IMG/VR virus record: IMGVR_UViG_2778261094_000010
Location: 1 to 48,461 of that record
Source: a virus
Taxonomy: Duplodnaviria > Heunggongvirae > Uroviricota > Caudoviricetes
Direction: 5' to 3' (one strand)
DNA length: 48,461 bases
The notes under the pieces were generated by a model. It was given only the letters and a program-made list of their open reading frames with translations. It ran no database searches and was not told the DNA's origin. Position 1 is the stretch's first letter. Each line of letters opens with the position of its first letter. Positions 18,621 through 42,437 of this stretch are shown piece by piece. The translations under genes and the position numbers were made by a program.

Positions 18621-18894
18621 AAGTTTTTTAAAATCACCTGTATATCAATCGTTTAACATGAAAAAACAGTCTTTATAAATCATCAAGCAATACACAGCGC
18701 AATACACGTATCTGTATTGTTTTAATGCTGATACACACCGTTTTTTGATACAGTGATTCGACCTACCATCGCGAAGCATTTTTTATTTCTTGTGTGTAAC
18801 AATCTGACGAGGTGAGCACTCAAAGAGATAAGAGGCAGTAGAAATTTCGATCACCCCCCTGAATGCAATTTTTCGTATATATATACAAAACAGC

Positions 18895-19047
18895 GCGGGT
18901 TATGCGGGTTAGCGGGTTATCTTCGCGTGCTAAGTATTTTTTGCTCTTTAATATCAATGCGTTAAAAAACAACGTATTTAAATATCAGCCAGAATGTAAC
19001 CCGCAAGACATTCAAAATAACCCGCACCCCTCCCTCAAATAACCCGC
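18895..19047. repeat. Iteron cluster B: 3 tandem GCGGGTTA(T/G) repeats, AT-rich spacer, 3 inverted (A)TAACCCGC copies
   Basis: Direct copies at 18895..18920, inverted copies at 18997..19004, 19017..19025 and 19039..19047, preceded by a TATATATATA tract; same repeat unit as the cluster downstream of the replication gene. Confidence 0.7.
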
Positions 19048-19128
19048 AAAAACATCCCTGAAAGTGGGTACCGGTAATACTGAAAATTTATTCCATTAAA
19101 TGAGCATTGTCCTCTCTCATCCATTCCG

Positions 19129-20790: not shown

Positions 20791-21130
20791 GCTCGTCCTC
20801 TTCCTCTGTTTCCGGTGGATTTCTGCGGCGACTTACCGGGTCAAAACCCAGCAAAGAAGCCATTTTGATCATTATTCTTTCAGCGTCAGCCTTTGCGCTC
20901 AGGGCGGGGTTTCTGCTCTCGCTGCCCTGACTGTTAACAATGCTGAACCCGCGCGTGGCAAGGTCTTCGACGGCTTTGCGGTATATGGAGTAGTTAACAC
21001 AATACAGCTCCAGATTGCTCCAGTCGGCGGGGGTAAGGTCTTCCCGTCCGGAAAGCTGGCGCGATTTTTCCTTCCACTGCCTGACCGCGATTTCATCCAG
21101 GTAAGCGGGGGCTTTTGGTGGTCTTGCCAT
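20774..21130 (-). CDS. terS: Satellite terminase small subunit (P27-like family)
   Basis: Translation from MARPPKAPAYLDEIAVRQW resembles P27-family small terminases; start assigned to the ATG at 21130. Confidence 0.8.
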   Translation of the reverse strand: MARPPKAPAYLDEIAVRQWKEKSRQLSGREDLTPADWSNLELYCVNYSIYRKAVEDLATRGFSIVNSQGSESRNPALSAKADAERIMIKMASLLGFDPVSRRRNPPETEEEDELDRLA

Positions 21131-21418
21131 GTTCTTTTTTCGCCCAATTATTTTCAAAAAAATTCCCGTGCACAAAAATTTGAGGAGGCGGTCGGTGTCC
21201 GGCAGGGACGGTTTCGTCCTGAAAACCACCCCCACCCCCTCTGACGGCCTCACCAGCGATTGCGAAAACATTCCATGACCTCGCGGTCACGGTCGGTTAA
21301 TCACTTCGCTGTGGTGCGTTTTGTGCGCCCTGTCCTGTTGGCTTTGTGCCCTGTCTCCTGTGTCTTCCATAAGTCACGCTGCCTTATCAGTCCACGTATC
21401 AGCCTGGTTTGCTCCTGT

Positions 21419-21859
21419 TCAGTCATCATCGCCATACATCCAGTCGTTACGGTGTGCTGCCCGTTCTTCCTGCTCGCGATACATGCCCGCCTTACGGTTC
21501 GCTTTCGTGGCTGGATCTTCCCGTGTCGTCTTACGGTTGTGGCACGTCTGGCACAATGCCTGGTGGTTCCACTCAGGCCAGAAGAGAACATCACCGCCGC
21601 CATTGATGGGGATGATGTGATCCACCACAAGAGCTGGCGTATAAATCCCCTTAGCCAGACAACGCACGCATAACGGGTTTTTGCTCAGGTACAGGGCGCG
21701 GTATTTGTCCCACTGTCGGGAATACCCGCGCGCGCGGCGGTGTCCCCGTCTGGCATCCTCTGCACGCCATGCAGCCCGTCTGTGCTCTTCACACTTGCCG
21801 GACTTCACGCGCTTATTACAGCCCGGCTCAGTGCATCGCCTTAATGGTTGCCACGGCAT
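21419..21859 (-). CDS. HNH endonuclease (terminase-associated)
   Basis: Cys-rich zinc-finger motifs (CNKRVKSGKCEEH, CVRC, CQTCH) and HNH-like His/Asn; located upstream of terS-terL as in HK97-like packaging modules. Confidence 0.85.
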   Translation of the reverse strand: MPWQPLRRCTEPGCNKRVKSGKCEEHRRAAWRAEDARRGHRRARGYSRQWDKYRALYLSKNPLCVRCLAKGIYTPALVVDHIIPINGGGDVLFWPEWNHQALCQTCHNRKTTREDPATKANRKAGMYREQEERAAHRNDWMYGDDD

Positions 21860-22161
21860 CAGTACACCCCCACATCACGATAAACCGACCAGAGCGCAGA
21901 AATAGCCATAGGCAGTTCAGACTGCTCCACTGGTGAAACTGCTTCCCTGTTCTCGTACAGGAAAGCGATGTACATCAGGCAACCAACACGCATTGCCGGG
22001 GTAAATTCCAGCCCGTCTTCAAAACGTTTCCCGATATGCTTCTGGCAGGCTTCCAGCGCCGCATCGGTATACATTTTCAGAAGTTCGCCTTCACCGGATA
22101 AATCATCATCAAGTCGAAGATGTGCCCTGACTTCATCAGGTGTAATTCTGGCTTCACTCAT
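21859..22161 (-). CDS. Satellite head-tail connector protein (gp6-like)
   Basis: Translation from MSEARITPDEVRAHLRLDDDL parallels the helper gp6-like protein (MLLKEEEIKSHLRLDD); GGGAGA ribosome-binding site before the ATG at 22161. Confidence 0.7.
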   Translation of the reverse strand: MSEARITPDEVRAHLRLDDDLSGEGELLKMYTDAALEACQKHIGKRFEDGLEFTPAMRVGCLMYIAFLYENREAVSPVEQSELPMAISALWSVYRDVGVY

Positions 22162-23368
22162 CTTTTCTCCCTTTAATTTCCACAGTCTGTTTCCATGCCT
22201 GGCTGAACTCATCACCACCTTCACGCGGCGGCATACCCTCGCGTTCGCGAGCTTCGTTCGGATTCATGATCCCGCTCTTAATCCCTTTCTCATACGTGGC
22301 ATAACGTTCGGTGGGTGTGGCGCGCAGTAAATCGGCTGAATCAAACTCAACCAGATAACGGGTACCAGGTACGGGAGAAGTCACCAGCAAAGCGGCCTTG
22401 ATTTGCTGTTCGAAGTTCGCCAGCCACGGGCGCATTGTCATGGTCAGAAATGCGCGGCTCGCCTCACTGAAATTGCTGTAGGTGCTGTTGCTGTATTCCT
22501 GAAGAAAAATCGGCGACACGTTGAACATCCTGGCGATGTCTTCAATGGAGAAGCGACGGGAGGCCAGCCATTCCGCATCCTGGTTACTCATCCCCAGCTG
22601 CCTGTAATCCATGCCCCCTTCAAGGATTGGCGTTTTTCCGGCATTTTTCGCCCCCTTGTAGCGTTCCAGTGCGTCTAATGCCTGTTTACCTTTCACGCCG
22701 TCCAGCCATTCACCTGACGTGATAATCCCTGCCGCCATCATGCCATCTTTCATAATGCTGGCTCCGTGACGCTGTTGAGCAAGGCCAAGCCCCAGCGCCT
22801 CACGGCAAATCGTGACGGGGGAACGCCCCAGAAAGCCATCATCCGAGGCATAGCGGAGATGCAGAACTTCTTCCTGTAAATACGTGCGCACCGTTCCTGT
22901 ACAGGGTTCGGTGATGGTATAGCGGTATTTGTGTGTGCCTGTGCGTTCCGGTACAACACACCCCGGCGCATAAGGATGAAGTGATTTTGGCTGCCCGTCC
23001 CGCCCCCACTCAATAACCGCATAGGCGTTACCGTTCAGCAGGCAGTGACGCATCATTGTGCGTTTAAACTGGTAAGGTGTCAGGCACGAATTAGGCTGCT
23101 CATTCAGCAGAATATCTACCGGGTGACTGTCCAGCCATTCCCGCGCCTCTCTGCCCTTATCATTGCGTACCAGATACAGGTAACACGGCATCGTGGCCAC
23201 CGCCTCAGCGATGACAGAAACCGCGTTCATCACAGCAGGCAATGATTCAGCCGTCCCGGCAGAAACATATTCTCCGGATCCGGTATTTGGTACACCAGAC
23301 AACGCCAGAAAATCATCAATGGACAGGTTACGCAGATCGCTTTTTTTACGACTAAAAGGCCACCACAT
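22154..23368 (-). CDS. Satellite portal protein (HK97 family)
   Basis: Portal-like sequence; start assigned to the ATG at 23368 (MWWPFSRKK), one nt after the protease stop. Confidence 0.85.
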   Translation of the reverse strand: MWWPFSRKKSDLRNLSIDDFLALSGVPNTGSGEYVSAGTAESLPAVMNAVSVIAEAVATMPCYLYLVRNDKGREAREWLDSHPVDILLNEQPNSCLTPYQFKRTMMRHCLLNGNAYAVIEWGRDGQPKSLHPYAPGCVVPERTGTHKYRYTITEPCTGTVRTYLQEEVLHLRYASDDGFLGRSPVTICREALGLGLAQQRHGASIMKDGMMAAGIITSGEWLDGVKGKQALDALERYKGAKNAGKTPILEGGMDYRQLGMSNQDAEWLASRRFSIEDIARMFNVSPIFLQEYSNSTYSNFSEASRAFLTMTMRPWLANFEQQIKAALLVTSPVPGTRYLVEFDSADLLRATPTERYATYEKGIKSGIMNPNEAREREGMPPREGGDEFSQAWKQTVEIKGRKDE

Positions 23369-23369
23369 A

Positions 23370-23930
23370 TCACAACCCCGCCAGTTCAGCCCAGCGATGA
23401 CGATTATTTCCTGCCGGGCGTAATTCAGGGTACTGTGCAAACAACGAACGGTGGGCAATCTCCACGCCGGATTCGGGATAAGCAGGCATCGATGTTATCG
23501 TGATTTCACGGAGTTCTGCGGCGGTTACAGTACGCAGATACGGTTTTTGCGCGATATTCCACTCCTCGCATAATGCGCGAAAGCCAAAGCTCATTCCTGT
23601 AATATCGCCACGTTCCACCAGCGTAAGCACATCTTTTCCAAGCTGGGTATTTGGCGGTGTCAGTTCAAAACGTAGCCCGGTGTTATCCTCAGTCAGTACC
23701 AGTGAGCCGGATTTGGTACGCCCCAGCAGTTGGGTATAGTCATGCTCATACAGACAGCGCACATCATTACCCGCCGCCAGATAGTCAGCAAAAGCCCCCG
23801 GCGTGAACTGTTCGCGAAACTCGTCCCAGATAATTTCTGAAAGGCTGTTCCAGCGAACGGCATAACCCACCAGTTTTTTATCGCTGGCGGTCAGTTCAGA
23901 TGTACGGATTTCAAAATCGGTGTTTTTCAT
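23370..23930 (-). CDS. Satellite prohead protease (HK97 family)
   Basis: Translation from MKNTDFEIRTSELTASDKKLVGYAVRWN with conserved His/Ser regions (YEHD, GMSFGF); GGAG ribosome-binding site before the ATG at 23930. Confidence 0.85.
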   Translation of the reverse strand: MKNTDFEIRTSELTASDKKLVGYAVRWNSLSEIIWDEFREQFTPGAFADYLAAGNDVRCLYEHDYTQLLGRTKSGSLVLTEDNTGLRFELTPPNTQLGKDVLTLVERGDITGMSFGFRALCEEWNIAQKPYLRTVTAAELREITITSMPAYPESGVEIAHRSLFAQYPELRPAGNNRHRWAELAGL

Positions 23931-23979
23931 CGGTGTACTCCATAAAGCTGAAAAAGGAGGCCGAAGCCCCCTTTGCTCA

Positions 23980-25125
23980 TTACTTGCCAGCCTGAATTTC
24001 CAGAATCTTGATGGCGTTCGAATCCACCACACCACCGCCCAGATATTTCTGGGTATAGATGTTAATGAATCCAGGCTCGCTGAAATCCGGACGGGTACGC
24101 GTACCGGTTTTATGGTCAACGATGAAATAACCGCGCTTAAAGTCACCGACTGCAATCACACCGTCCGGCATAAATTCCAGATATTCAACCGGAAGCCCCA
24201 GCAGAGAATCAGGATCACCAGCCTGTAAACGATCGCGCCAGATGTAATCACCAGTGGCATTTTTCAGTTTTTGTGCGGAGGCGGCTGTATTTGAGTTCAT
24301 CACCCATACAGCTTTTTTGCGGTACTTATTGCGCAGCGTAAATTTCAGGTCAATCAGCATATCGGCGCTGAGACTGCCAGTCACTTTTTTCGTCTGGAGC
24401 GTACCGAAAGGACGGGTTTTGTCATTATCCGTAGTGCGCGGGAAAGTCAGGAAACCTTTGGCTTTTTTCTCGCCATCACCGGAAACCAGATCCGTTTCTT
24501 CGGTATCAACGAAAGTGTCGCCAATTTCAGAAGATAACCAGCCCATAATATCGACTTCGGAAAAATCGATAATTTCCTGAGTGGTTTTCGGGTAAGCGTA
24601 GATCGGATACAGGCGGATACTGACTTCATTCAGTTTTGGGGTTGCCGTCTGGTTACGTGCCGCACCTTCTTCGCCGTGTCCCACGACCGCACCCCCGGCA
24701 GAAACCAGTTGCTTAAATTCATTACTGTGAATGGTTTTAACAGTACAGATTTTACGCATCACCGACTCATCAGAAAGCTGACGCATAATTTCTCTGTTCA
24801 GTTCCGGGATAACCGTATAACCACCATCAGCCGGAACACTGCCGGACAGGTTGCGGGTTTCCCCGGTCAGAATGTAAGAGCGTAGCTCGTCTTTGGTGAT
24901 TTTATCTTCGACGGGAACACCAGGCTGGTTACGTTCTTCATCAGCCACAGACTCGAGGCGGGAAATTTCTGTGTCGAGGGAATCGGCTTTTGCACGCAGT
25001 TCATCAAACTGTTTGCCCTCGTCATCGGTTAGACTGCGGTTTTCACTGTCGGCTTTTTCCAGCAGGGATCGCATCTGGTTTTTCAGGGCGGTTTTTTGCT
25101 GGCGGAGTTCGATTAATTTCTTCAT
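23980..25125 (-). CDS. Satellite major capsid protein (HK97 fold)
   Basis: 381 aa; N-terminal coiled-coil delta-like domain followed by an HK97 core (ADGGYTVIPEL); homologous in outline to the helper capsid protein but clearly diverged. Confidence 0.9.
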   Translation of the reverse strand: MKKLIELRQQKTALKNQMRSLLEKADSENRSLTDDEGKQFDELRAKADSLDTEISRLESVADEERNQPGVPVEDKITKDELRSYILTGETRNLSGSVPADGGYTVIPELNREIMRQLSDESVMRKICTVKTIHSNEFKQLVSAGGAVVGHGEEGAARNQTATPKLNEVSIRLYPIYAYPKTTQEIIDFSEVDIMGWLSSEIGDTFVDTEETDLVSGDGEKKAKGFLTFPRTTDNDKTRPFGTLQTKKVTGSLSADMLIDLKFTLRNKYRKKAVWVMNSNTAASAQKLKNATGDYIWRDRLQAGDPDSLLGLPVEYLEFMPDGVIAVGDFKRGYFIVDHKTGTRTRPDFSEPGFINIYTQKYLGGGVVDSNAIKILEIQAGK

Positions 25126-25360
25126 GAAGGTTTTCTCGCATTGGTTAAGATTCAGGACGTGAAACCAACACGGGGGGAGCGCCGCCCGACACTCTCGGCA
25201 TCTCGCAGATCAACCCGGCATCGCGCAGGGGGTCAGGCGGCATTGTGGCGGCTCACGTCTGAGTGCCACACGCCAACATATACATAAAAATCAGTATGTA
25301 AACATCAGCCAGAATCACCGAACAACCTGGAACAACCACGAACAAATAATTTACAAAACC

Positions 25361-25396
25361 TGAAAAAAGGCCCGGAAAAAATCCGGGCCTTTATCG
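25361..25396 (-). terminator. Rho-independent terminator (bidirectional hairpin GGCCCGG-N7-CCGGGCC flanked by A and T runs)
   Basis: Perfect 7-bp stem with A6 upstream and T-rich downstream, immediately 3' of the minus-strand gene ending at 25399. Confidence 0.7.
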
Positions 25397-25398
25397 CT

Positions 25399-25647
25399 TT
25401 ATTGTTTCACTGGCTCCCGCATTCTGCGTCTTATTTTCCACAAATATTCGATCATCGCTTCCACCTGCTCACGGTTGGTTGCGAAAATTTCCCCGGTCAG
25501 TGAGCTACGCAGAAAATCATGATGATCCACAAAAAATAACGCATCGGAAGAAAGCAACCGACGATATTTTTTTGCTGTCGTGGTTTCCAGATCATCAAAA
25601 CCATGAAGCTTTTTATGTTGCTGAACTTCTTCAAATGTCACTGGCAT
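25399..25647 (-). CDS. Hypothetical satellite protein
   Basis: 82 aa ORF overlapping the upstream gene end and followed by a terminator; no recognisable motif. Confidence 0.4.
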   Translation of the reverse strand: MPVTFEEVQQHKKLHGFDDLETTTAKKYRRLLSSDALFFVDHHDFLRSSLTGEIFATNREQVEAMIEYLWKIRRRMREPVKQ

Positions 25648-26180
25648 GTATCCCCCTTTGCTGCCCGGCGCTGGCGCTTGTGCTTCTCATTCAGCACCAT
25701 CAGCCGTGTTTCTGCCTCCTGCTGTTCCTGTGGTGTCACTTCCCCACATGGCTGGCCTTTCAGGTCGTAACGTGCGCCACCAGCTATCAGGGCGCGGTAA
25801 TAGCGCGGAGACTGCGCATAGGATGCCAGCGTCGCACGTAATACCCCCGACCCGAATGCCAGCCCCCTGACGGCGATATCCTGCATCAGGTCGTCGAATA
25901 TCCCCACCTTAAGCGGCTTCGGTGCTTTATGGCTGAATAAGTCAGGCCACATCTCAGTGAGGCGGTTAACGCGTCGGCGGTTTTTGCGCTGCCTTTTGGT
26001 CATATGCTGCCACGGTGTCGCCCCTGCGGTCTTCTGTTTGCGGCTCTGCTGTGCGTTCTGATTATCGGGTATCACTTTATGCGCCGATGTGGTTTTATCC
26101 TGCTCTTGCGCCGCCTGCGTCGTTTTCTGCGGCGTGCCGTAAATGCCTTTCGGCTTCCGGTTAATGGTCAGCGTTGTCAT
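25638..26180 (-). CDS. ProQ/FinO-family RNA-binding protein (putative RNA chaperone)
   Basis: Basic N-terminus, then a FinO/ProQ-like core (PLKVGIFDDL...RYDLKG). Confidence 0.55.
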   Translation of the reverse strand: MTTLTINRKPKGIYGTPQKTTQAAQEQDKTTSAHKVIPDNQNAQQSRKQKTAGATPWQHMTKRQRKNRRRVNRLTEMWPDLFSHKAPKPLKVGIFDDLMQDIAVRGLAFGSGVLRATLASYAQSPRYYRALIAGGARYDLKGQPCGEVTPQEQQEAETRLMVLNEKHKRQRRAAKGDTCQ

Positions 26181-26216
26181 GCCTTCCCCCGTAATTACTC
26201 TGTTCGCTGTTGTGAA

Positions 26217-26642
26217 TTAAAACGGTATGTTATCCCCGTACGGGTCATCGTGCTGGCTTGTCTGTTGTTTTGCCCTGTTCAGTGCGTCAGTGGCCTGGCC
26301 CTGTTGACCTTTTTTGCCGCCCGGTCGCGCCGTTCGCGCACTGATTACGCTGTCTGCAATAACCTGCCAGCCCTGCCGCGTTTCCCCGTTCTGGCCTGTC
26401 CACTGGCTCACCTGCATGTTACCCGCCACGCTCACCAGTTCGCCTTTGTGGTGTTTTGCCAGTGCGTCGGCCTGTCTGCCAAACGCCAGGACAGATAACC
26501 ACATCGTCGCCGTTCCGTCATCTGCCTGGCTGCACGGCAGGGGAACCGCCATACTCGCCATCGCCATTTGTGTCCCTTTGCTGGTGGTCTTTAACTGCGG
26601 GTCAGCCACCAGCCGCCCGTAAGCCGCTATCTGTGCTGTCAT
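26217..26642 (-). CDS. ssb: Single-stranded DNA-binding protein (SSB)
   Basis: OB-fold-like N-terminal region, Gly/Gln-rich linker and an acidic C-terminal tail ending DDPYGDNIPF (compare the canonical SSB DDDIPF tail). Confidence 0.7.
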   Translation of the reverse strand: MTAQIAAYGRLVADPQLKTTSKGTQMAMASMAVPLPCSQADDGTATMWLSVLAFGRQADALAKHHKGELVSVAGNMQVSQWTGQNGETRQGWQVIADSVISARTARPGGKKGQQGQATDALNRAKQQTSQHDDPYGDNIPF

Positions 26643-26706
26643 GCTGTCTGTTCTCCGGTTTTAACGTTGATTGTTACGCTTGTTTACACCCTTACGGTGA
26701 AATTCT

Positions 26707-26829
26707 GCGGGTTATAATCGCACTTTTGCGGGTTATAACTGCCGTTTTGCGGGTTACGTGCGGGTTATTGATTTCCTTTTTATTCATACAGTTAATGCAC
26801 TTATACACAGGATAACCCGCATAACCCGC
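26707..26829. repeat. Iteron cluster A (putative satellite replication origin): 4 direct GCGGGTTA(T/C) repeats, AT-rich spacer, 2 inverted ATAACCCGC copies
   Basis: Direct copies at 26707..26715, 26728..26736, 26749..26757 and 26760..26768; inverted copies at 26812..26829; located just downstream of the replication protein gene. Confidence 0.7.
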
Positions 26830-26852
26830 AACTTTTTACATCACACAGGGGG

Positions 26853-28976
26853 TTAATCTTCTGCCTCAGGCTGGAACATCAGCACGTAAAAAACATGCTG
26901 CTTCCCCCCAATTTTGCTGAGCGCCTTTTTCTTGTAACGGCGGTCGTTCCCCTTTTCCAGCATCCCCGCCGCATCAAGCGCTCTTGCAAAATGCGACGGG
27001 TTAAATCCCTGTGCGATCTCACCTTCAAACACATGCGGGAACGTGTAAAAACGGAACTCGTCATCTTCGTTTCTGATACTCCCCTTTCTGTATCCGGCAA
27101 GTTCTTTAATCGGTAAATCACGCTCGTCGGTGTTGGGCCACGGAAGGTATCTGCTGAATCCGAACGACGCTAAAAAAGCCTCTGCCTGTTCAACCATCTG
27201 TTTAAATTCCCTGTTACCCGTGCCGAACTCCTTCACCCAGGCATTAAAATTATGCTGTATGGCATCGCGGCACGCCTGAACATCCCAGCCAGTAATATGA
27301 CCGGACAACACTAACGCCGCCTCAAGCATGGCAAATCGCTCCCCCACACGGTGAACCTGTTCGCCGTAGCTCTCCGGTATCAGGTTGCGCCACCGTTCAC
27401 GGCATGCCCTTACCGTGTCCTTTGCTTCCTGCTGGTGGTTTGCCAGCCATTTAACCCACTCTCGACCCGCCGCCCCGTGATTTTCTGTCCAGGCATCCTT
27501 TAACGCGTCTGCGTGCGCCTTTCCGGTGCTGTATTCGTGAAACTGCGTGGCTTTTTCCATCGGCACGTTAAGCAGGCGGACAAGCTGCCCCGCCTTGACT
27601 TTTATCCCCTCCGTTTTGAGGAATGTTTCAACGTCCATTTCTCCGGTGCTGATTGCCACCGTGCGCCAGTGTTTGATCTCCCTGTTGCCGCCGTCCTTCG
27701 CCCCCTGTAATTTCCCCGAACCGTTAAACAGCGTATAGGCTGACGTGGACACCTCCCGCGCGTTTCCGGCCTGACCTATTTCATCCAGGGGTAACAGCCC
27801 ATCATTATGTGCTTCGGCCTCGTTGGCGATACCTAACGCCGTGCCGTACCAGGTCAGCCGTTGTGCGTCCGGCTCTCCCCATAAACTGGATGCGATGTTC
27901 TGTGTGGTGGTTTTCCCTGCCGATGACTGTTCGAAAAGATGTACCCCGAAGCCGTCAGCCCCCACCAGCCCGATTAATGGTGCGGATAACGATACCGCCA
28001 CACCCAGCATCATGGACGGATTACCACCAGCCAGCCGCGCCACGGTATCGCGCCAACCCTCCGCCGTTCCTGCCACGGAATAGCCATTAACAGCAGCCGT
28101 TTTTCCGGTAAACAGGGCTGGCTTTTCGCAATCACCAATGACCGAACCGTCCGGCATGATGTACGCGCCAAAATGCCAGCCCGTTGTTGTGCTTAACTGC
28201 CATTCCTCATGGCTTCCGCTTAACTGCATCCAGTCAGCCAGGATAGCCCTGTATTTGCCGTTAGTTGTTACGTTCAGTCCGTGGTCTTTCAGCAGCCGCC
28301 AGCCGTCACGGTCGCCAATGCCACCGCACGGAACCGCCATTGTGATGACTTCATGGTTTGCTAATTTTTTCCAGCGCATCACGCGGTAATGCTCTTTACC
28401 GATTGTCCCCGTTCCCAGTAGTTCAAGCGGGGAACATAACCACGTCTCAGGCCGGATAATTTCGCCTGACTGCTTATCCACTTTTGGCGTTACCCAGAAA
28501 ACACCATCGGCGCGACTTTCAACGCGGGGCTTTAATTCATCATCGCCCTGGCTTTCTGTAATTTTTTTCTTTAAAGGCAACACCAGACTTTCCCCGCGCT
28601 CGTATTCGTCTTTGAGGCGAGGCAACTGGTCGGATAAATCCGCCGGGCTGGTGTCAGTTATACCCGCGTATTCGTATACGGTCTTCACGCCAGCCACAGC
28701 CAGCAACGTGACGATCTGTGTAAGGCTACGTTCAGTGATGTGCCCTGCGCGGTAAACACGCACACACTGACGGCTATCATCAATAATTTGATAACCGGTA
28801 ATATCTTTCAGGTGTTCATCTGACAGAACGACAGGTGGCACATTGTCGGCGGCAATATGCTTACCTGCCCATTCCTGCCACTCTTTCGCATGGCTCCACG
28901 CATCACTACCCGCAAAGATGATAACCTCCGTCATTTTGTCGGCTGGCTGGTGCTTTAAGTTTGGTGCGCGCTTCAT
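26853..28976 (-). CDS. Replication protein, DUF927-type primase/helicase (P4 alpha-like or PICI Rep-like) with Walker A motif
   Basis: 707 aa; Walker A-like SSAGKTT within a DUF927-like helicase core; adjacent iteron cluster; ATGA-type overlap with the upstream ORF. Confidence 0.75.
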   Translation of the reverse strand: MKRAPNLKHQPADKMTEVIIFAGSDAWSHAKEWQEWAGKHIAADNVPPVVLSDEHLKDITGYQIIDDSRQCVRVYRAGHITERSLTQIVTLLAVAGVKTVYEYAGITDTSPADLSDQLPRLKDEYERGESLVLPLKKKITESQGDDELKPRVESRADGVFWVTPKVDKQSGEIIRPETWLCSPLELLGTGTIGKEHYRVMRWKKLANHEVITMAVPCGGIGDRDGWRLLKDHGLNVTTNGKYRAILADWMQLSGSHEEWQLSTTTGWHFGAYIMPDGSVIGDCEKPALFTGKTAAVNGYSVAGTAEGWRDTVARLAGGNPSMMLGVAVSLSAPLIGLVGADGFGVHLFEQSSAGKTTTQNIASSLWGEPDAQRLTWYGTALGIANEAEAHNDGLLPLDEIGQAGNAREVSTSAYTLFNGSGKLQGAKDGGNREIKHWRTVAISTGEMDVETFLKTEGIKVKAGQLVRLLNVPMEKATQFHEYSTGKAHADALKDAWTENHGAAGREWVKWLANHQQEAKDTVRACRERWRNLIPESYGEQVHRVGERFAMLEAALVLSGHITGWDVQACRDAIQHNFNAWVKEFGTGNREFKQMVEQAEAFLASFGFSRYLPWPNTDERDLPIKELAGYRKGSIRNEDDEFRFYTFPHVFEGEIAQGFNPSHFARALDAAGMLEKGNDRRYKKKALSKIGGKQHVFYVLMFQPEAED

Positions 28977-29287
28977 TTTGCCTTTCCCCGTTCACGAATA
29001 ATTTCACGTACTGCCTTAATGCGTTCCATTCCTGTAACGCGCATGATTCTGTCGATGTCGCTTAATTCTGCTGGTGGTGCTTTGCTTACCAGGGGGAACT
29101 CCCTTTCAAAGCGCATATGCGACGACACGCAGGGATGCGCATAACCTTCGCGGATATAGGTCACGCGAAAATCATCGACGGTTTTAATCGTTATCGTGCT
29201 GCCGTATTTATCCCGGAAAATATCGCCGGGGCGGATTTCAGGCCGAGCGTGACCGCTGGCAGTAAAGCCAGAATTTTTCTTTTTCAT
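28973..29287 (-). CDS. Hypothetical satellite protein
   Basis: Start assigned to the ATG at 29287 (MKKKNSGF); translationally coupled to the replication gene. Confidence 0.4.
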   Translation of the reverse strand: MKKKNSGFTASGHARPEIRPGDIFRDKYGSTITIKTVDDFRVTYIREGYAHPCVSSHMRFEREFPLVSKAPPAELSDIDRIMRVTGMERIKAVREIIRERGKAK

Positions 29288-29294
29288 GTTTTTT

Positions 29295-29543
29295 TTACTC
29301 CAGAGGCAGCTTTTTAGCGGCGAGCTCAATATCAGATGTCAGAGAAACCTGTGTATTTGCCAGGTCTAACAACAAAGAAATAAGAATTTCTTCTCTGCTA
29401 TCGGATTTATCGGTGCTAAGGCTGTTCATCCACATATTGACGACTTCCCTGATTTTTTTCGCAGAGTGCAGGGCTTCAAATGCCAGGCCTTCAATATCAT
29501 GTTTATTTCGCATAATCGCCCCCGCCATTTTCACAATCAGCAA
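29295..29543 (-). CDS. Hypothetical satellite protein
   Basis: 82 aa ORF in the early operon; no recognisable motif. Confidence 0.35.
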   Translation of the reverse strand: MLIVKMAGAIMRNKHDIEGLAFEALHSAKKIREVVNMWMNSLSTDKSDSREEILISLLLDLANTQVSLTSDIELAAKKLPLE

Positions 29544-29748
29544 TCAGGATGGCTTTTGCCTCATTCAGCGCCATATCAGCACTAAATTGCATAAGAGCCA
29601 GTGAGTGAGGAACGAAAGCCCCGGTATATTCTGTTTCGCTGGTGGCGTGCTTATGCGCCTTGTCTGCGATAACAGAAATATCAATCAGCGCGTGCATCAG
29701 CGTTTTGATGGCTTCGGCGGCTGCGTCCGGTGTGGTTTTATTATGCAT
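29503..29748 (-). CDS. Hypothetical satellite protein
   Basis: 81 aa ORF in the early operon; no recognisable motif. Confidence 0.35.
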   Translation of the reverse strand: MHNKTTPDAAAEAIKTLMHALIDISVIADKAHKHATSETEYTGAFVPHSLALMQFSADMALNEAKAILIADCENGGGDYAK

Positions 29749-29944
29749 AGGTTTCCCCCTGGCGAATACGGGCGGCGAATACCATCACGCAGCCATCAGG
29801 AGATTGCTGACGCGCTTCCTGTTCGCTGGTGGCCTCAATGGTAATCACGCGCGGTTGTGCCGTGCTCAGGGCGATAAAACGCCAGATGTATTTATTCAGG
29901 TTGTACGAGTCCCGCCCTTGCGGGTGTCTGGTATAATTTCTCAT
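29741..29944 (-). CDS. Hypothetical small protein, first gene of the minus-strand early operon
   Basis: 67-codon ORF (MRNYTRHPQGRDSYNL...) with a GAGG ribosome-binding site, transcribed divergently from the operator region. The listed 349-aa ORF is treated as a read-through artefact. Confidence 0.4.
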   Translation of the reverse strand: MRNYTRHPQGRDSYNLNKYIWRFIALSTAQPRVITIEATSEQEARQQSPDGCVMVFAARIRQGETYA

Positions 29945-30041
29945 AGCTACCTCGATACGCTTTCTATCGTTGGTGGTTAGAAGCCCGGTTAGTGTTAGCG
30001 CACTGCCGGGTTTCGTCGTTTCTGCACCTTGCATCAGTAAG

Positions 30042-30093
30042 GTGTTGAACACCAATTTAAGCCCTGGTGTTAAACACGTCAAGTGTTGAACAC
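30042..30093. promoter_or_regulatory. Operator-like triple palindrome GTGTT(G/A)AACAC in a divergent promoter region
   Basis: Near-palindromic 11-mers at 30042..30052, 30067..30077 and 30083..30093, between the minus-strand early operon and the plus-strand small regulator gene. Confidence 0.6.
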
Positions 30094-30143
30094 TTATTTT
30101 TTTTCCTGCATACTGCATTTGTTTTTTGTAAGGGGTACACAAC

Positions 30144-30323
30144 ATGGCAACAAAAGCAGTAAACGCAAAATCACAAACAGTTGCGGCAAGGGTTCCGCAT
30201 GAAGTTATGAACAATGTTGAGGCGGTAAAAATGCCTGGTGAAAGTACAGGGCAGTTTGTAACAGCAGCATTAAAGCGAGAAGTTGAATACCGCCAGCGTC
30301 GCAAGGCCAAAGAGCAGGAATAA
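30144..30323 (+). CDS. Small putative DNA-binding regulator (59 aa)
   Basis: ATG at 30144 preceded by an AAGGGG ribosome-binding site, immediately downstream of the operator palindromes; small basic protein with a KREVEYRQRRKAKEQE tail. Confidence 0.5.
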   Translation: MATKAVNAKSQTVAARVPHEVMNNVEAVKMPGESTGQFVTAALKREVEYRQRRKAKEQE

Positions 30324-30380
30324 CCATCACCAGCGCCGTGGTGTAAGGTATTACGGCGCATTGCTATGCAGGACAACACA

Positions 30381-30554
30381 ATGACCGATAAAGAATTGAC
30401 CAAAACATTATCACCGACACGGAAAAGACGGCGCAGAAAGATAGAGCATGAATCAGAAAGATTCGCACCTTGTTCGTTTGCTCTTGAGAAATTCCTTAAA
30501 GAGCGCAGGAAAAAACTCTCGTTGCAAACCTTGGAACGAACCAAATCTGACTGA
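30381..30554 (+). CDS. Hypothetical small basic protein
   Basis: 57-codon ORF (MTDKELTKTLSPTRKRRRRK...) with an AGGA ribosome-binding site, followed by tandem terminators. Confidence 0.3.
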   Translation: MTDKELTKTLSPTRKRRRRKIEHESERFAPCSFALEKFLKERRKKLSLQTLERTKSD

Positions 30555-30620
30555 TCACATTGCCCACCAGCCGCAAATGTGGCATTGTTGGTGATGCTTT
30601 TGTTTTCCCTTGTTCCCACT

Positions 30621-30650
30621 GGCGACCCTTTTGCGGTCGCCTTTGTTTTG
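30621..30650 (+). terminator. Rho-independent terminator (GGCGACC-CTTTTGC-GGTCGCC followed by TTTGTTTTG)
   Basis: Perfect 7-bp stem followed by a T tract, downstream of the plus-strand small ORFs. Confidence 0.7.
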
Positions 30651-30745
30651 CCTGTTATCCTGCAACTATGGTCATTTCGACCACGGTTGATATAATCCCC
30701 CCGCACAGATTCATTTTTTGCGCAGTAGGTTAATTGTTCGCAAGG

Positions 30746-30780
30746 GCGCTCCGGTAACGGGGCGCTTTTTGTTTTTACCC
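30746..30780 (+). terminator. Rho-independent terminator (8-bp stem with GTAA tetraloop followed by TTTTTGTTTTT)
   Basis: GCGCTCCG-GTAA-CGGGGCGC hairpin (one G-U pair) followed by a T-rich run; second of two tandem terminators. Confidence 0.65.
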
Positions 30781-30934
30781 ACCAGCACAATAAAAATCTT
30801 CATTTTCCATTTTTGTAAAATTTCATGCTTTCCGGACGACTGGTAATATGTCATTTTTTAGCAGAAGATTTTGCCTTGCTGGTGGGTAGCTTCCCGGTCA
30901 ACACGATGTACCGTATAATCAACACCGCGTGTGG

Positions 30935-31531
30935 TTACTGAATACGCTCACCAAAGTAAAACTCAGGCTGGTATTCACGTATCAGCCTTTTTTCTTCTTC
31001 CTCCAGTTCACGCTTTTTGCGCTTACATGCCTGTAGCTCCCTCCCCTTCTCGCTGGCACTTATCTGGTATTGCTCTTTGCGGCGGGAAAAATCCTGTAAT
31101 GCTCCCCACGGGATACCATAAGCCCCCGTTTTTCTGATACCCGGTATCACATTTCTGAATACCCAATTACTGAAACGATGGGCGAACGTGCCAGGATTAA
31201 CAGCTTTGCGACTTCTGGCGATCAACTTGTAAAAACCTGATTCTGATACAACATTCCAACTTCTGGCACCACCACGCTTACCTGAATGACCCTCGGTTAA
31301 AGCTAGGGTCATTACCTCATCGCTATCCAGAACTGAAACAGCATCGGTAACGTTGCTAATTTCCAGCGCCGCACACACATCAGCGCCAACAAACCACGGA
31401 TCGCCGTTCAGATACACCACGCGAACGTTCACACTATCAAAGCGCAGAACGACCAGATCACGAATATCACAGAATTTTTTCACATGACGTGCGTCACCCT
31501 TGCCCGTCGCGGCAATATTTTTATTCATCAC
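30935..31531 (-). CDS. Bro-N domain protein (antirepressor-like)
   Basis: Bro-N signature (FDSVNVRVVYLNGDPWFVGADVCAALEI...SGFYKLIARSRK) with a Lys/Glu-rich coiled C-terminus. Confidence 0.7.
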   Translation of the reverse strand: MMNKNIAATGKGDARHVKKFCDIRDLVVLRFDSVNVRVVYLNGDPWFVGADVCAALEISNVTDAVSVLDSDEVMTLALTEGHSGKRGGARSWNVVSESGFYKLIARSRKAVNPGTFAHRFSNWVFRNVIPGIRKTGAYGIPWGALQDFSRRKEQYQISASEKGRELQACKRKKRELEEEEKRLIREYQPEFYFGERIQ

Positions 31532-31585
31532 TTTCTACCTCACATACAAAAAACCCCGCATTGCGTGGTGCGGGGTTGTCGGTAA

Positions 31586-31864
31586 TTACTTATTGGCGTT
31601 TTTGTATGGGCTGTTTACTTCCTTTACTCCTGGCGGATGCATAACCCACCAGAGCACATCAGAGAGCAACCAGGAAACAGACACTTTCCCTAAATGAGCA
31701 CGAGCAGGAAATGCTCCCTCCTGTTCAAGTACCCAACGTCTGCTTCTTGAAAGCCCGGTACGATTGGCACACTCATGTTCGCGTATACGGCGATCATACG
31801 GTTCGCCATGTTCTTTCAGAATCTGAATGCGTTCTTCGGGTGTAGGATAAATAAATTTTTGCAT
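31586..31864 (-). CDS. AlpA-like helix-turn-helix regulator (second copy)
   Basis: Translation from MQKFIYPTPEERIQILKEHGE with an AlpA-type C-terminal helix-turn-helix (TGLSRSRRWVLEQEGAFPARAHLGKVSVSWLLSDVLWW). Confidence 0.5.
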   Translation of the reverse strand: MQKFIYPTPEERIQILKEHGEPYDRRIREHECANRTGLSRSRRWVLEQEGAFPARAHLGKVSVSWLLSDVLWWVMHPPGVKEVNSPYKNANK

Positions 31865-31927
31865 AAAAATATCACCTATAAAAAAACCCGCCAAAAGACG
31901 GGTTGATTATATCTCATTTAATTTAGT

Positions 31928-32161
31928 TCAGGGTTTCCATTCACCCTTTACCCATTCCAGCACCTCAGATAAGCGCCAGACTTTTGTTTGTGGGCCAATA
32001 CATATTTTCCGTGGAAATTTTCCTTCCTTTTCAAGTAATGCTCTGTGTCTCCTGCCAAGAGCTGTTAACCATGCACATTCATCTTCCTTAATCATCCTGT
32101 CGATTGTTTTATCATTTTCAAGTTCTTCACGCGTAACTATTTCAATCATTACCGTCACCAC
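31928..32161 (-). CDS. alpA: AlpA-family transcriptional regulator / excisionase-like protein
   Basis: 77 aa with AlpA-like helix-turn-helix (LTALGRRHRALLEKEGKFPRKICIGPQTKVWRLSEVLEWV); immediately downstream of and overlapping the integrase gene. Confidence 0.75.
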   Translation of the reverse strand: MVTVMIEIVTREELENDKTIDRMIKEDECAWLTALGRRHRALLEKEGKFPRKICIGPQTKVWRLSEVLEWVKGEWKP

Positions 32162-33350
32162 TAATTAGCTTATTCAGATAGTCGTACCACCAGTTCATAG
32201 CTTCTTTTTTTCTGTCCATATACTGACTTCTGTTATAAACCCCGGCAACACCGCCTAATGTGTGCCCAAGCAACTGTTCAACCACATTATGTTCAAAACC
32301 ATGATCACTTAGCTTTGTGGCAAACACTCTTCGCATATCATGCGCCGTCCATTTTTCCGAGTGTTTCATCCTTTTCCATGTCTTACCGATAGTTACGCTT
32401 GCCGTACACTGACGCATATCAAACCCAATCACATTTTCTTTGTTACCTGTTATTTTTTTTAACGTAACTAACCAGTTAAACATGCCATCAGGAATCGGTC
32501 TGATTATTTCCCTGCCATTTTTGCTATGATCAGCGGGAACGCGCCATAATTTCTTATCAAAATCCCACTCTACCCAGGACGACAGTAATACTTCTGACAG
32601 TCGACAACCAAAAACTACCAGGAAACGTAAAATAATTCGGTTTTCATATGATAATTCGTGATTGTCATAATCAGTATTAATACTTCGCCATAAATCTCTG
32701 ATTTCATCATCTGTTAAAACCCTGCTTCTTCGCGCAGACTTTTTTCCCACATCACAGACCTCAAGATCATCAATTTCATGACTAATCGCGTATTTTCTTA
32801 CCCTACAAAATTTAAGCGCCTGTTTTGATATACGCAACAAAGCTCCGGCCTGTACAGGTGCTACTTTTTTTATTTTGTCAAAACACTTGATCCACATAGA
32901 TATAGAGCAATCACTAAGTGGTACATGACCAATCACCGGATAAATATGTTTACCAAAGCACTGCCTGATATGTTCTGCTCCCCTACGCTTATCCATTGCA
33001 TAATTATCAAGCCAGTATTCAAGTGCCTCACGAACGGTAACAGGTTGCAAGGTGGCTTCCCGTTCAATTTTTATCTGAATCCGTGGATCTCTGCCCTCCG
33101 CAAGCCAGGTTCGACACTGATCGCGCATCTCTCTCGCTGATTTGAGACTCAGATCAGGATATTTTCCAAGTGTCAGCCAGATGGGCGCGGTTCCCCTTCC
33201 CGCCAGTCTGTAAAAGAAAACAAAACTAACACATCCGTATTTACTGACCCGTACCGAAAGCCCGTTACCATCAGCGATGGTTTCCTGCCTCTCACTCCTG
33301 CGCCCAAGCAGGGAACGAAGTTTTTTATCGCTCAGTTTGTTTAGCGCCAT
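32142..33350 (-). CDS. int: Tyrosine integrase (P4-type site-specific recombinase)
   Basis: C-terminal catalytic motifs (HDMRRVFAT, LLGH, GVYNRSQY); start assigned to the ATG at 33350 (MALNKLSDKKL); lies about 170 bp from the right junction core. Confidence 0.9.
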   Translation of the reverse strand: MALNKLSDKKLRSLLGRRSERQETIADGNGLSVRVSKYGCVSFVFFYRLAGRGTAPIWLTLGKYPDLSLKSAREMRDQCRTWLAEGRDPRIQIKIEREATLQPVTVREALEYWLDNYAMDKRRGAEHIRQCFGKHIYPVIGHVPLSDCSISMWIKCFDKIKKVAPVQAGALLRISKQALKFCRVRKYAISHEIDDLEVCDVGKKSARRSRVLTDDEIRDLWRSINTDYDNHELSYENRIILRFLVVFGCRLSEVLLSSWVEWDFDKKLWRVPADHSKNGREIIRPIPDGMFNWLVTLKKITGNKENVIGFDMRQCTASVTIGKTWKRMKHSEKWTAHDMRRVFATKLSDHGFEHNVVEQLLGHTLGGVAGVYNRSQYMDRKKEAMNWWYDYLNKLISGDGND

Positions 33351-33517
33351 GTGATTTATAACCCGTTTTTGCAATACACAGTGCAATACACAAATGATGA
33401 AAACAGCCAGAACCTTCCAGAAAAAACAAAAACGACGAACAAGAAAAAATCTTTTTCTTTCATTTGGTTACTAAAAAAATCAGGACAGGTCGCACTGTTG
33501 TTACGGCGTGATGTTAC

Positions 33518-33537
33518 TTTCTTGGTAAAAAAATTCA
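33518..33537. repeat. Right attachment junction (attR-like): exact 7-bp core TTGGTAA at 33522..33528 plus imperfect flanking match
   Basis: Direct repeat of the 18605..18611 core; boundary between satellite DNA (integrase side) and the helper terL N-terminal fragment. Confidence 0.65.
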
Positions 33538-34549
33538 CCCGCGCAGAGACCTGTTCTTTCGCTTTTTTCGCCAGGCGACGCAGATCATCCCAGCGTTTAC
33601 AGATGCCCAGGCCGGGATTCGCTTTCTGCCAGACCGTTTCATCAAACGGATCATCTCCCTCATCGAGGGTGTAAATAATCGCAAAGTAGGAGTCGTCTTT
33701 TACCGCGCCCTCCACGTCGCTGTTATAGCCTCGCAATACCTTGATGGCGTAATCGCGTTGCTCGTAACAAATCCCTTCCTTGTTAAAGCCAGCCGTGGTG
33801 ATACCAAATAACAGGGACTGCAGACGGGCACCGGTTGCCGTTTCCAGAACGTCCCACACGTCGCGGGTTTTATGTGCATGCAGCTCATCAATAATGGCGC
33901 AGTGGATGTTCAGACCATCCAGGTTGTTTGCATCCGAGGAAAGCGGTTCAAATTTTGATGCGCTCTGCTCCTGGTAAATCGCCAGCTTGTTGAAATCAAA
34001 CAACCGCCCGAGTGTCGATCGGGCTTTTCTGACCATATTTTTGGCGTCTTCAAACACGATTCTGGCCTGGTCACGCGTGGTTGCGGCTGAATACACCTCA
34101 GCCCCGCCTTCACCATCTGCCCCCGTCATATACAGACCGATACCTGATGACAGGGTTGATTTTGCGTTTTTACGGGCGACTTCGTTGTACGCTGTCCGGA
34201 AACGGCGCACCATCACCGGGCGTCCGCTGCCATCGCTGCGCATGACAACTTCCCCGGTCTCTTCATTCACCAGCGGAATGACAAAACCAAAAATATTAAT
34301 GAGGATAAAAACATGCCAGTCCATCAGTTCAATGGGCTGACCTGCCAGCGCCCCTTTTACATGGGGCACAAATTTGTAGAAATTCAGGATGTGCTGCGCA
34401 CGGGGTTCACTGAAATAAATCCCCCGCTCTTCGCCGTACTTCAGATCATCAAGAAAACGCTGGCAGGCCAGACGGACAAATTCACCAGCGACAATTTCTC
34501 CTGCAACAACACGTTCGGCGTAGCGGATCCCGTCAGCCACTTTTGCCAT
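33522..34549 (-). pseudogene. terL: Helper prophage terminase large subunit, N-terminal ATPase-domain fragment (5' part of a terL split by the satellite)
   Basis: Translation through DETVWQKANPGLGI...ARVNFFTKK parallels satellite TerL (DDPAMWIKANPNID...EMLTKRFNIW), then runs into unrelated low-complexity sequence (VTSRRNNSATCPDFF...) after the junction at about 33522; the ORF's true stop is at 33356. Confidence 0.8.
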
Positions 34550-40092: not shown

Positions 40093-40836
40093 CTAATCTG
40101 ACGTCACACGCACCATTATACTTACTAAAGAAAAGTCATCATCAGGTCCGGCTCTCTCTATACGACGCAAAATGCCATTAGAAAACTTCTGACTATTACT
40201 CATCGTATTTGATGTAAATCTGGGGCGTTTTTCCCAAACGTTATGAACCCCATCAGACATGATACACAGATGATATACCCCGTTAATACTAGGTAAATCT
40301 TTCCATGTGATAAAATCACAGTCGTATTCCATATCAACATTTGAGGCTATAGCCGTCGTTAAGATATTTTTGCCCGGTTTATCCTTCAAATCTCTGGGTT
40401 TAAAAATATTCTGATCAATTAGCATCTGATGCCTGGTATCGTCCTTCGTCAATTGGTATGCTTTCTTCTCTCCAATGCAATACAAACGACAATCACCAAT
40501 ATGACCAATAATAATTCCGCTATCACAAACATAACAAAACGTAAGTGTAGTAGCAGCTTTATCGAACTCATCATTAACATCAGCTAACGACATAACCTTT
40601 CGCTTAACTTCATCAAATACATCCGGAACTGTGTCAAAAGATAAGCTTGTCAATGCTGAAAGTTCAGCAATTGCCATTGATGAAGCCTGACTGGCACCAG
40701 TGTATGAACCTACACCATCAGCTACGGCAAATAAGATGCCATCCCCTACAATTTTGGGAGGAAGCAATGAATCTTCGTTGACCCTACCTGGTTCTTTTGG
40801 ATACGAGAATGATGAAGTCGCTATCAGCTGAATCAT
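40093..40836 (-). CDS. PP2C-family Ser/Thr protein phosphatase
   Basis: PP2C metal-binding motifs (NED, FAVADGVGS, GDCR, MSDGV); ATG overlaps the kinase stop (ATGA); AT-rich codon usage. Confidence 0.85.
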   Translation of the reverse strand: MIQLIATSSFSYPKEPGRVNEDSLLPPKIVGDGILFAVADGVGSYTGASQASSMAIAELSALTSLSFDTVPDVFDEVKRKVMSLADVNDEFDKAATTLTFCYVCDSGIIIGHIGDCRLYCIGEKKAYQLTKDDTRHQMLIDQNIFKPRDLKDKPGKNILTTAIASNVDMEYDCDFITWKDLPSINGVYHLCIMSDGVHNVWEKRPRFTSNTMSNSQKFSNGILRRIERAGPDDDFSLVSIMVRVTSD

Positions 40837-41597
40837 GACTCACTCCTTAAAAAAGAATGCACAAAATCAAACGCCACATCATCTATTGTCTGATATCTAT
40901 CATCTTTATCCATCCTGGTACACTTCGCTATGATAGGCTTTATTTTTTTATCATCTAAATTTAAGTCCTCAATTAACCGCCCCACCGCATAAACATCAGT
41001 CTTAACTGAATACTCGGCATTATATAAAATCTCGGGAGCCATATATCTTGTACTTCCCATACGGGTACCGATCTCGGTCAATTTAGTGGTATCCCCTTCG
41101 GGATTTGTATCTTTTACCAGACCAAAATCAGACACCTTGTATGTTCCGTCGCTAAATCGCAAGACATTAAATGGTTTTATATCTCTGTGTAAATAGCCTT
41201 TCGCATGGATGTGAGCTACACCATCTAATACCATTTTCACTATTGAAATTTTTTGATCTGTTGTAAGAAGGTTGTTCGTTATTTCGTGCTCAAGATCACA
41301 TTCTGCTTTATCCATAATGAACCATGGATTCTCGGCAAACAAATCGCACAAATAAATAGGAACAATATTGCTATGTACGCAATGTGATTGATACACGACC
41401 TCCCTTTTAAAACGCCTTCTAAACTGCTCTATTTGCGCCAAAAGCTCTGGTTTTTCGGGGGCTAAAACCTTTCTAGCATAATCCCCACATTCACCCTTGT
41501 TGAGGTTGTAAACCTTAACGTGTTCAACAAAGCCAAATGCACCCCTTCCAATCAACTGAATTCGTTTTATAAAGTAATTACCGTGCTGTTCTTCCAT
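40833..41597 (-). CDS. Hanks-type Ser/Thr protein kinase (kinase domain only)
   Basis: Complete kinase subdomain set: glycine loop GRGAFGFV, catalytic Lys in YARK, HRDIKPFNV, DFG, TRYMAPE, DVYAVG. Start assigned to the ATG at 41597 (MEEQHGNYF). Confidence 0.85.
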   Translation of the reverse strand: MEEQHGNYFIKRIQLIGRGAFGFVEHVKVYNLNKGECGDYARKVLAPEKPELLAQIEQFRRRFKREVVYQSHCVHSNIVPIYLCDLFAENPWFIMDKAECDLEHEITNNLLTTDQKISIVKMVLDGVAHIHAKGYLHRDIKPFNVLRFSDGTYKVSDFGLVKDTNPEGDTTKLTEIGTRMGSTRYMAPEILYNAEYSVKTDVYAVGRLIEDLNLDDKKIKPIIAKCTRMDKDDRYQTIDDVAFDFVHSFLRSES

Positions 41598-41669
41598 TAA
41601 GCTCACCGACCTAAATTGTAAGAATATCCATATCTTACAACTACAGATAAAAAGGTCCACAGAGTTAAG

Positions 41670-41695
41670 CAAAAAACCCGCATTTAAGCGGGTTT
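41670..41695 (-). terminator. Rho-independent terminator downstream of the Q-like gene (possible tR'-like site)
   Basis: Hairpin ACCCGC-ATTTAA-GCGGGT followed on the minus strand by a T6 run, about 50 bp after the Q-like stop. Confidence 0.6.
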
Positions 41696-41741: not shown

Positions 41742-42437
41742 TTAATTGACTTTTGCAATATCTCGTCGTGAAAAGGTCGCTTTTTGTTGCGATCTCATTT
41801 TCACGGTGCAAATCAAGGATTCTGTATCGAGTTTCTTAAAAATGTCGCACATCTCACGCCAGTAGTTCGCATAATTATGGCTCCAGTTGTCAGGCTTAAC
41901 TCCACACAGTCTGGCAAGTTCCTGTCGCTGGTAGACGTCACGCCCAGTAATCCTCCCCCTGACATCCTGCGCCGCCAGCCAGATTAATTTCTTCAGACGC
42001 TCAAGCGTTTTCCCTGTAATTTTTCTGGTGCCAAAATGCACCTGAAACTTATCCCACGCCCATTTCGCAATGACCACCTGATAATCCCAACTCGGATTTT
42101 CACTGTATACCCACAGCACCCACGCCTTCTGATGCTCTTCAAGAGACAGAACGGCGCGTCGCCATGATGATGTCGAAAACTCAACCGGACTGACCAGGGC
42201 AATTGATGAACCTTTCGCCAGCGATTGCTTTCCCGGGATCGGTGGATTATCCAGCGTTACCATTTTTCCAGTGACCTTATCGCGGTACCGGATTTTTTTA
42301 CGTCTGTAACGCCCTGTATCAAACATGGCATTCTCCTGCCAGGCTTCAAGCTGACCTTTTGTTGCCCCACTCAAATCGGCGGTGGCGATAATGAGCTGCT
42401 CACGAACAAACTGTAAATACTGGTTATTCATGCGCAC
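41742..42437 (-). CDS. Putative late-gene antiterminator Q-like protein
   Basis: 231 aa basic protein directly after rusA and directly before an intrinsic terminator and the late-region morons; assignment rests mainly on conserved lambdoid gene order. Confidence 0.45.
   Translation of the reverse strand: MRMNNQYLQFVREQLIIATADLSGATKGQLEAWQENAMFDTGRYRRKKIRYRDKVTGKMVTLDNPPIPGKQSLAKGSSIALVSPVEFSTSSWRRAVLSLEEHQKAWVLWVYSENPSWDYQVVIAKWAWDKFQVHFGTRKITGKTLERLKKLIWLAAQDVRGRITGRDVYQRQELARLCGVKPDNWSHNYANYWREMCDIFKKLDTESLICTVKMRSQQKATFSRRDIAKVN

Follow-up and report, generated by a model that had tools for sequence, protein, structure and literature searches.

The closest described systems are the helper-embedded PICIs (HE-PICIs), of which Tommasini, Mageeney and Williams reported 491, distributed over 14 sites in cognates of lambda late genes (NAR Genom Bioinform 2023, PMC10111431). 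Their integrases form a single clade, the elements are co-oriented with the late gene in which they sit and their genes are laid out in four zones, in the order Integration, Bro, Replication, Late. HE-PICIs also have a doubled motif unique to them, tgTGTATTGCantgTGTATTGCa, with two copies in the same orientation, one 81 ± 2 bp upstream of the centre of attP and the other 132 ± 2 bp downstream of it; whether its ligand is the arm domain of Int, AlpA or something else was left undecided in that study. The founding HE-PICI, 11capE, comes from E. coli NRG857c, where it interrupts a lambda-like capsid gene E. Its precise excision is induced by mitomycin, as monitored by qPCR and deep sequencing, and was seen only after the composite had been excised and replicated (PMC10111431); the published experiments are confined to this capsid E group. 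Another of the groups, A_Terminase_1_246, is made up of E. coli elements of ~15 kb with the block ‘ttaccaa’ (PMC10111431 Supp. File 1). It has ~61 rows, a size estimated from 122 occurrences of the string at two per row, and some of its elements are found within 57-kb prophages at potB (PMC10111431).

The other relevant systems are the capsid-forming cf-PICIs (Alqurainy et al, 2023; prototype EcCIEDL933; SatelliteFinder model, PMC10085698), elements of ~14–15 kb that have the same gene set as the element described here and are without tail and holin genes. The cf-PICI preprint gives six chromosomal attB sites in E. coli, with no wording such as ‘within prophage’ or ‘inside’, whereas our element sits inside one of its helper's late genes. 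The HE-PICI paper, for its part, does not use the name cf-PICI. The members of the HE-PICIs that are embedded in terL would be capsid-forming satellites with their own terminase, a link that is not drawn in the HE-PICI paper or in the cf-PICI preprint.

The DNA analysed here, referred to below as the window, is a stretch of 48,461 nucleotides from a virus of the Caudoviricetes (IMG/VR record IMGVR_UViG_2778261094_000010). Within it, positions 33522–33528 are very probably a recombinant att site, the one nearest the integrase gene (attL when read in the orientation of the satellite), of a capsid-forming satellite of the PICI type that is embedded in its helper. The inserted satellite spans 18612–33528 on the minus strand (14,917 bp including one copy of the core), is co-oriented with the terL gene that it splits and has the same layout in E. 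coli 042. The original prediction had read this position as the integrase-proximal junction of an insertion splitting terL, and on this point the empty site, the division of the Pfam domains and the identity of the rebuilt 585-aa TerL with an intact protein all agree. Both the class of satellite and the exact insertion site were already published in 2023 by Tommasini, Mageeney and Williams, and the junction itself adds nothing new, since class, site, 7-bp core and arm motif are all in that paper and its supplement.

The 5′ part of the helper terL (33529–34549, minus strand) encodes the ATPase domain together with the first portion of the nuclease, approximately residues 1–340, as judged from Pfam and from matches to intact terL genes, while the 3′ part (17875–18604, minus strand) encodes the remainder of the nuclease domain. 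The Pfam matches in the 33356–34549 fragment are to TerL_ATPase and to positions 2–68 of the TerL_nuclease profile, and those in the ORF at 17875–18600 are to TerL_nuclease positions 64–283. As the nuclease profile ends at position 68 in one piece and resumes at position 64 in the other, terL has been cut once, with an overlap of a few codons. Each piece is incomplete and the gene, split at the start of the nuclease, is whole only without the insert. In-silico removal of 18605–33521 gives a 1758-nt open frame encoding a TerL of 585 aa, which is 100% identical to the annotated intact protein WP_001140898.1 of E. coli E200086. An empty-site query of 1000 bp, in which 18105–18604 was joined to 33522–34021, matched two E. 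coli chromosomes with 100% identity over the 1000 bp and reached a coverage of 80% or more in 905 of the 5426 complete genomes, where the annotation was always terminase large subunit. Genomes without the insert match a query of 32900–34100 only from query position 623, which corresponds to window position 33522. With the gene split at the start of the nuclease and no replacement sequence supplied, the helper would have no functional large terminase while the satellite is embedded.

The truncated gene is contained in a 397-aa ORF (33356–34549, minus strand) that follows TerL through ...ARVNFFTK, the terminase portion ending ...KEQVSARVNFFTK, and then runs on for 59 codons of VTSRRNNSATCPDFF..., the portion after the junction reading VTSRRNNSATCPDFFSNQ.... 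The original prediction described this tail as nonsense, and it is indeed out of context: the stretch at 33356–33521 (minus strand) is the noncoding attP arm of the satellite (VTSRRNNSATCPDFF...), is absent from intact terL genes and was not found as conserved protein sequence in homologues. The frame of the truncated terL stays open across the whole 166-bp attP arm, with its stop a few bases before the ATG of int. That the open tail reaches int is probably chance rather than a feature of the family, because the interrupted ORF in 11capE stops after 11 codons, compared with 59 here; the alternative would be translational coupling to int.

At the integrase-proximal junction the 14-mer TTGGTAAAAAAATT is found on the plus strand at 33522–33535, within the segment 33518–33540 that had been put forward as a copy of the core. 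Its partner, TTGGTAAGAATATT at 18605–18618, is identical at 12 of 14 positions. A copy of the core is therefore present where it was predicted, but the block that is shared is the 7-bp TTGGTAA rather than the 14-mer, the other seven positions of which include two mismatches. In a three-way alignment of attB with the two junctions in the window, the 7-bp TTACCAA is the sole block common to all three; attB tracks the 33.5-kb junction through TTACCAA and the 18.6-kb junction from TTACCAA on. On the minus strand this core lies at 33522–33528 in the integrase-proximal junction, with near-identity running on to 33535, and at 18605–18611 in the distal junction, where the near-identity runs on to 18618. 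The alignment places the strand exchange within these 7 bp. The core of attB reads ...GTGAATTTTT-TTACCAA-ACACATGAAT..., over the codons N-F-F-T-K, and that of attP is reconstructed as ...AATATTC-TTACCAA-GAAAGTAAC.... Excision is predicted to produce the joint GAATTTTTTTACCAAACACATG in the restored terL (in the longer attB form ...GGTGAATTTTTTTACCAAACACATGAATG...) and ATATTCTTACCAAGAAAGTAAC in the circular satellite (in the longer attP form ...GAAATATTCTTACCAAGAAAGTAACATC...). The repeat by itself is no rarer than would be expected by chance. When up to two mismatches are allowed TTGGTAAAAAAATT has four matches in the window against 0.87 expected, a number reached in 4 of 100 shuffles, and the exact 7-mer TTGGTAA occurs eight times in the window when both strands are counted. 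The case for the junction rests instead on the comparison with the empty site.

The gene for the tyrosine integrase of the satellite (32142–33350, minus strand; 402 aa; Pfam Arm-DNA-bind_3 and Phage_integrase) starts with an ATG at 33350, 172 bp from the core, and in this reading the arm-binding domain recognised by Pfam begins at residue 6. A short identity of ~7 bp with an integrase gene adjacent to it, the arrangement looked for at the att site of a tyrosine recombinase, is what is seen with TTACCAA, and the usual int–att geometry claimed from the start of the gene holds. A comparison of the arms with P4-type patterns had been proposed; the arm sites are not generically of that type but are the doubled TGTATTGC motif reported as specific to the HE-PICIs (PMC10111431). 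One copy, tgTGTATTGCactgTGTATTGCa, is at 33370–33392 (minus strand), ~133 bp from the centre of the core on the integrase side, and the second, cgTGTATTGCgctgTGTATTGCt, is at 18686–18708 in the same orientation, ~78–79 bp from the centre of the core on the other arm. The doubled pattern has exactly two matches in the window where 0.01 would be expected. The spacing is that published for the HE-PICIs, the ~78–79 bp being 0–1 bp outside the reported range according to the definition of the centre. The integrase matches that of 11capE along its full length (50% identity over 396 aa, E = 4e-144), and the identity of its att and arm sequences would place it in the A_Terminase_1_246 subclade.

The att sequences published for this group can be followed by eye in the window, where the attL, ...gcgcgggtgaatttttTTACCAAgaaagtaacatcacgccgtaacaacagtgcgacctgtcctgatttttttagtaaccaaatgaaag..., is the minus strand of 33545–33430 and the attR, ...aaaaacttgaaatattcTTACCAAacacatgaatgtgtgggt..., is the 18.6-kb junction. 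The target gene, the codon position, the ‘ttaccaa’ block, the arm sequence (again by eye) and the zone layout are all the same. The position given in the name of the group is also accounted for, with the 178 profile positions of TerL_ATPase and ~66 of the nuclease adding up to ~244–246 of the old Terminase_1 profile. Nothing essential is different, the element here being 14,917 bp and the listed Eco1645.15 being 14,645 bp. Like our element, 11capE has the doubled motif at both ends and interrupts a late gene of which it brings a homologue of its own, but its target is capsid E, its identity block is 10 bp, it is 11 kb in length, it lacks terS, terL and portal genes and it has a lambda-like helper, not a phiP27-like one. 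In regulated gene integrity, or active lysogeny, a gene is likewise disrupted without replacement and its ORF rebuilt by precise excision. There, however, the gene is one of the cell's own, while here it belongs to another mobile element and the arrangement presumably serves the satellite, as argued for the HE-PICIs (PMC10111431).

All of the genes of the satellite, among them int, alpA and the primase gene, share the minus strand with terL, and they follow the order of zones described for the HE-PICIs. In the Integration zone int is accompanied by two genes of the AlpA family (Pfam Phage_AlpA; 31928–32161 and 31586–31894, zone 31586–32161), which are candidates for an excisionase or regulator. 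The Bro zone (29741–31531) has a gene resembling Bro-N and anti-repressors (30935–31531) and a 349-aa ORF whose C-terminus is repressor-like (29741–30790). The Replication zone (26217–29329) contains a DUF4222 gene, a DUF927 primase/helicase of 707 aa (26853–28976), an SSB gene (26217–26642) and an iteron cluster (26707–26829). Between the SSB gene and the capsid gene is an accessory slot, occupied here by a gene with a ProQ/FinO domain (25638–26180, minus strand); in the E. coli 042 element the same slot holds a PerC-family regulator (L001 13033–13329) and other small ORFs. The Late zone (19129–25125) encodes an HK97-type capsid protein, an S78 protease, a portal, a head–tail adaptor, an HNH protein, a P27-type TerS and the satellite's own TerL (19129–20790, 553 aa). 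Each member of the core gene set of the cf-PICIs is thereby recognised through Pfam and PHROG matches, with a single adaptor/connector gene, and a scan of 20 ORFs in 18612–33528 revealed no gene for a tail, holin or lysis protein. The gene content fits a capsid-forming PICI-type satellite, and the formation of its own capsids is predicted.

The TerL of the satellite is ~30% identical to that of the helper. At the position equivalent to attB the satellite terL reads CTCACCAAG where the helper terL has TTTACCAAA, a difference that makes insertion of the satellite into its own terL unlikely. The cores themselves are one base apart, TCACCAA in the satellite terL compared with TTACCAA in attB, and the flanks differ as well. 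An E. albertii member in the published att files has TCACGAA as its identity block, which indicates that there are core variants within the group (PMC10111431).

The same junction recurs, with 97.8–99.3% identity, in 36 complete E. coli genomes; their sources are swine, poultry, cattle, humans and the environment, and one of them is the enteroaggregative reference strain 042, with the junction at around 2,250,955 of NC_017626.1. A query with int and its arm returned the same 36 genomes and no others, the best match always being annotated as overlapping a terminase large subunit. In a sensitive DNA search with the int gene the only matches in E. coli genomes beyond these carriers were short and of 66–78% identity, and in this collection the integrase occurs only at terL. 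The site is occupied in 36 of the 935 genomes that have this terL, or ~4%, so that there is natural material for experiments. In E. coli 042 the two terL pieces, which flank a 15-kb element of the same kind, are called by PGAP as pseudogene fragments, ‘incomplete, missing C-terminus’ and ‘incomplete, missing N-terminus’. Labels of this type are easily mistaken for decay of the prophage, when the gene may be restorable by excision.

Judged from its sequence, the helper is a phiP27/ST64B-like E. coli prophage. Its head region has 92.5% DNA identity to phiP27 and ~84% to ST64B, and its genes include an HNH–terS–terL module, an HK97-type head, a contractile tail with a Mu-like DNA-circulation protein, a lysis cassette, a Q antiterminator and a DNA methylase. 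The late, lysis and Q regions are intact within the window. No match to the potB-type att reported for one published helper was found in the window, and the ends of the helper therefore either lie outside it or are of another type. When the HNH–terS gaps of the helper and the satellite were aligned in search of a shared cos there was no convincing similarity. Just downstream of Q (41742–42437) the helper also encodes a Ser/Thr kinase of the eukaryotic type together with a PP2C phosphatase (40093–41672, minus strand) in a block of low GC (0.38–0.40) that looks like a moron or exclusion cassette.

These data bear on whether the junction belongs to a working element. The integration could have been site-specific and either this copy or its helper now be defective, leaving a fossil that simply inactivates the terL of the prophage. 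Many of the helpers of HE-PICIs look truncated and no virions were recovered even for the founding 11capE (PMC10111431), and the helper here ends outside the window, with no potB-type att in it. All of the satellite ORFs scanned, however, are full-length with strong domain matches, the helper regions that can be seen are not decayed, and the junction and int are ~98–100% conserved in 36 genomes from pigs, poultry, cattle and humans. We therefore regard a stranded relic as unlikely. Two matches to the int region are present in each of NZ_CM135183.1, NZ_CP128979.1 and NZ_CP122620.1; these may be second copies, in which case they would speak for recent mobility.

Homologous recombination between two prophages that each carry a terL, or their tandem fusion, could in principle also give two terL genes in one region, and the satellite terL does share short stretches of similar DNA with that of the helper (families D2 and D11). 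With two proteins that are so divergent, breakpoints that share 7 bp and leave a perfect ORF at the empty site, and identical boundaries in 36 genomes, this seems very improbable; the insert moreover has no tail or lysis genes, and has AlpA beside an inward-pointing int together with replication genes of the PICI type. Introns and inteins are common in terminase genes and there is an HNH gene within the insert, but a self-splicing or homing element, whether a group I intron, an intein or a homing endonuclease cassette, can be given next to no credence for an insert of 14.9 kb that has ~20 genes, encodes a tyrosine integrase and has arm sites for it, and in which the HNH gene is part of the usual HNH–terS–terL packaging arrangement, as in the helper. 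An assembly artefact can be given equally little when the junction is common to independent complete assemblies.

The comparison shows that the tyrosine integrase of the satellite recombined its attP with the attB inside the terL of a phiP27/ST64B-like prophage. For an embedded satellite that can still excise, the following course of events may be proposed. Tetramers of Int probably bridge the core and the two doubled arm sites ~79 bp to one side and ~133 bp to the other. After induction of the helper, late transcription from terS and the 5′ piece of terL probably enters int and alpA. Such read-through is possible because the genes have the same orientation and a scan of the interval between the 5′ piece of terL and int found neither promoter-like nor terminator-like sites. 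It would lead to precise excision and to restoration of the 585-aa terL. The satellite would then replicate from its own primase and iteron origin, and its DNA would be packaged by its own HNH–TerS–TerL into its own HK97-type capsids, with only tails and lysis taken from the helper.

The iterons are copies of an 8-mer, GCGGGTTA. The window has 14 of these where 1.2 would be expected, 12 of the 14 being in two clusters in the satellite. The first (26707–26829), with four direct and two inverted copies, is in the usual position of a PICI origin, just 3′ of the primase gene. The second (18895–19047) is in the noncoding end beside the distal att, with three direct copies at 8–9 bp spacing and three inverted copies at 21–22 bp that surround an AT-rich stretch. 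Both clusters are kept in the E. coli 042 copy. The second cluster may be a second origin, a handcuffing site or a site related to packaging.

It is possible, though we suggest it only tentatively and from the arrangement of the genes, that the split in terL is actively used by the satellite as a cis-acting ‘terminase swap’. The embedded state would let the helper build heads and tails without a packaging motor, the divergent HNH–TerS–TerL of the satellite would serve its own DNA only, and read-through of helper late transcription into int and alpA would time the release. The iterons beside the att site (18895–19047) might in addition tie replication or packaging to the circular form that excision yields. 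Members that are embedded in terL and have a terminase of their own would make a good system in which to study competition between helper and satellite packaging under embedding.

Two further observations concern the Bro and Late zones. Immunity RNAs of the C4/isrK type are known from some Bro zones, and no match to these P4-type RNAs was found in the satellite at E ≤ 0.1. A match resembling the SymR antitoxin RNA is present at 29945–30017 on the plus strand, antisense within the 349-aa ORF with the repressor-like C-terminus; at 32.8 bits, against a gathering score of 61, and E = 0.006 it is below threshold. The portal–capsid region of the satellite has ~75% DNA identity to LR881103.1, a 16.5-kb entry named ‘Escherichia phage vB_KppS-Ant (induced prophage)’, which, judging by its size, may be a capsid-forming satellite filed as a phage.
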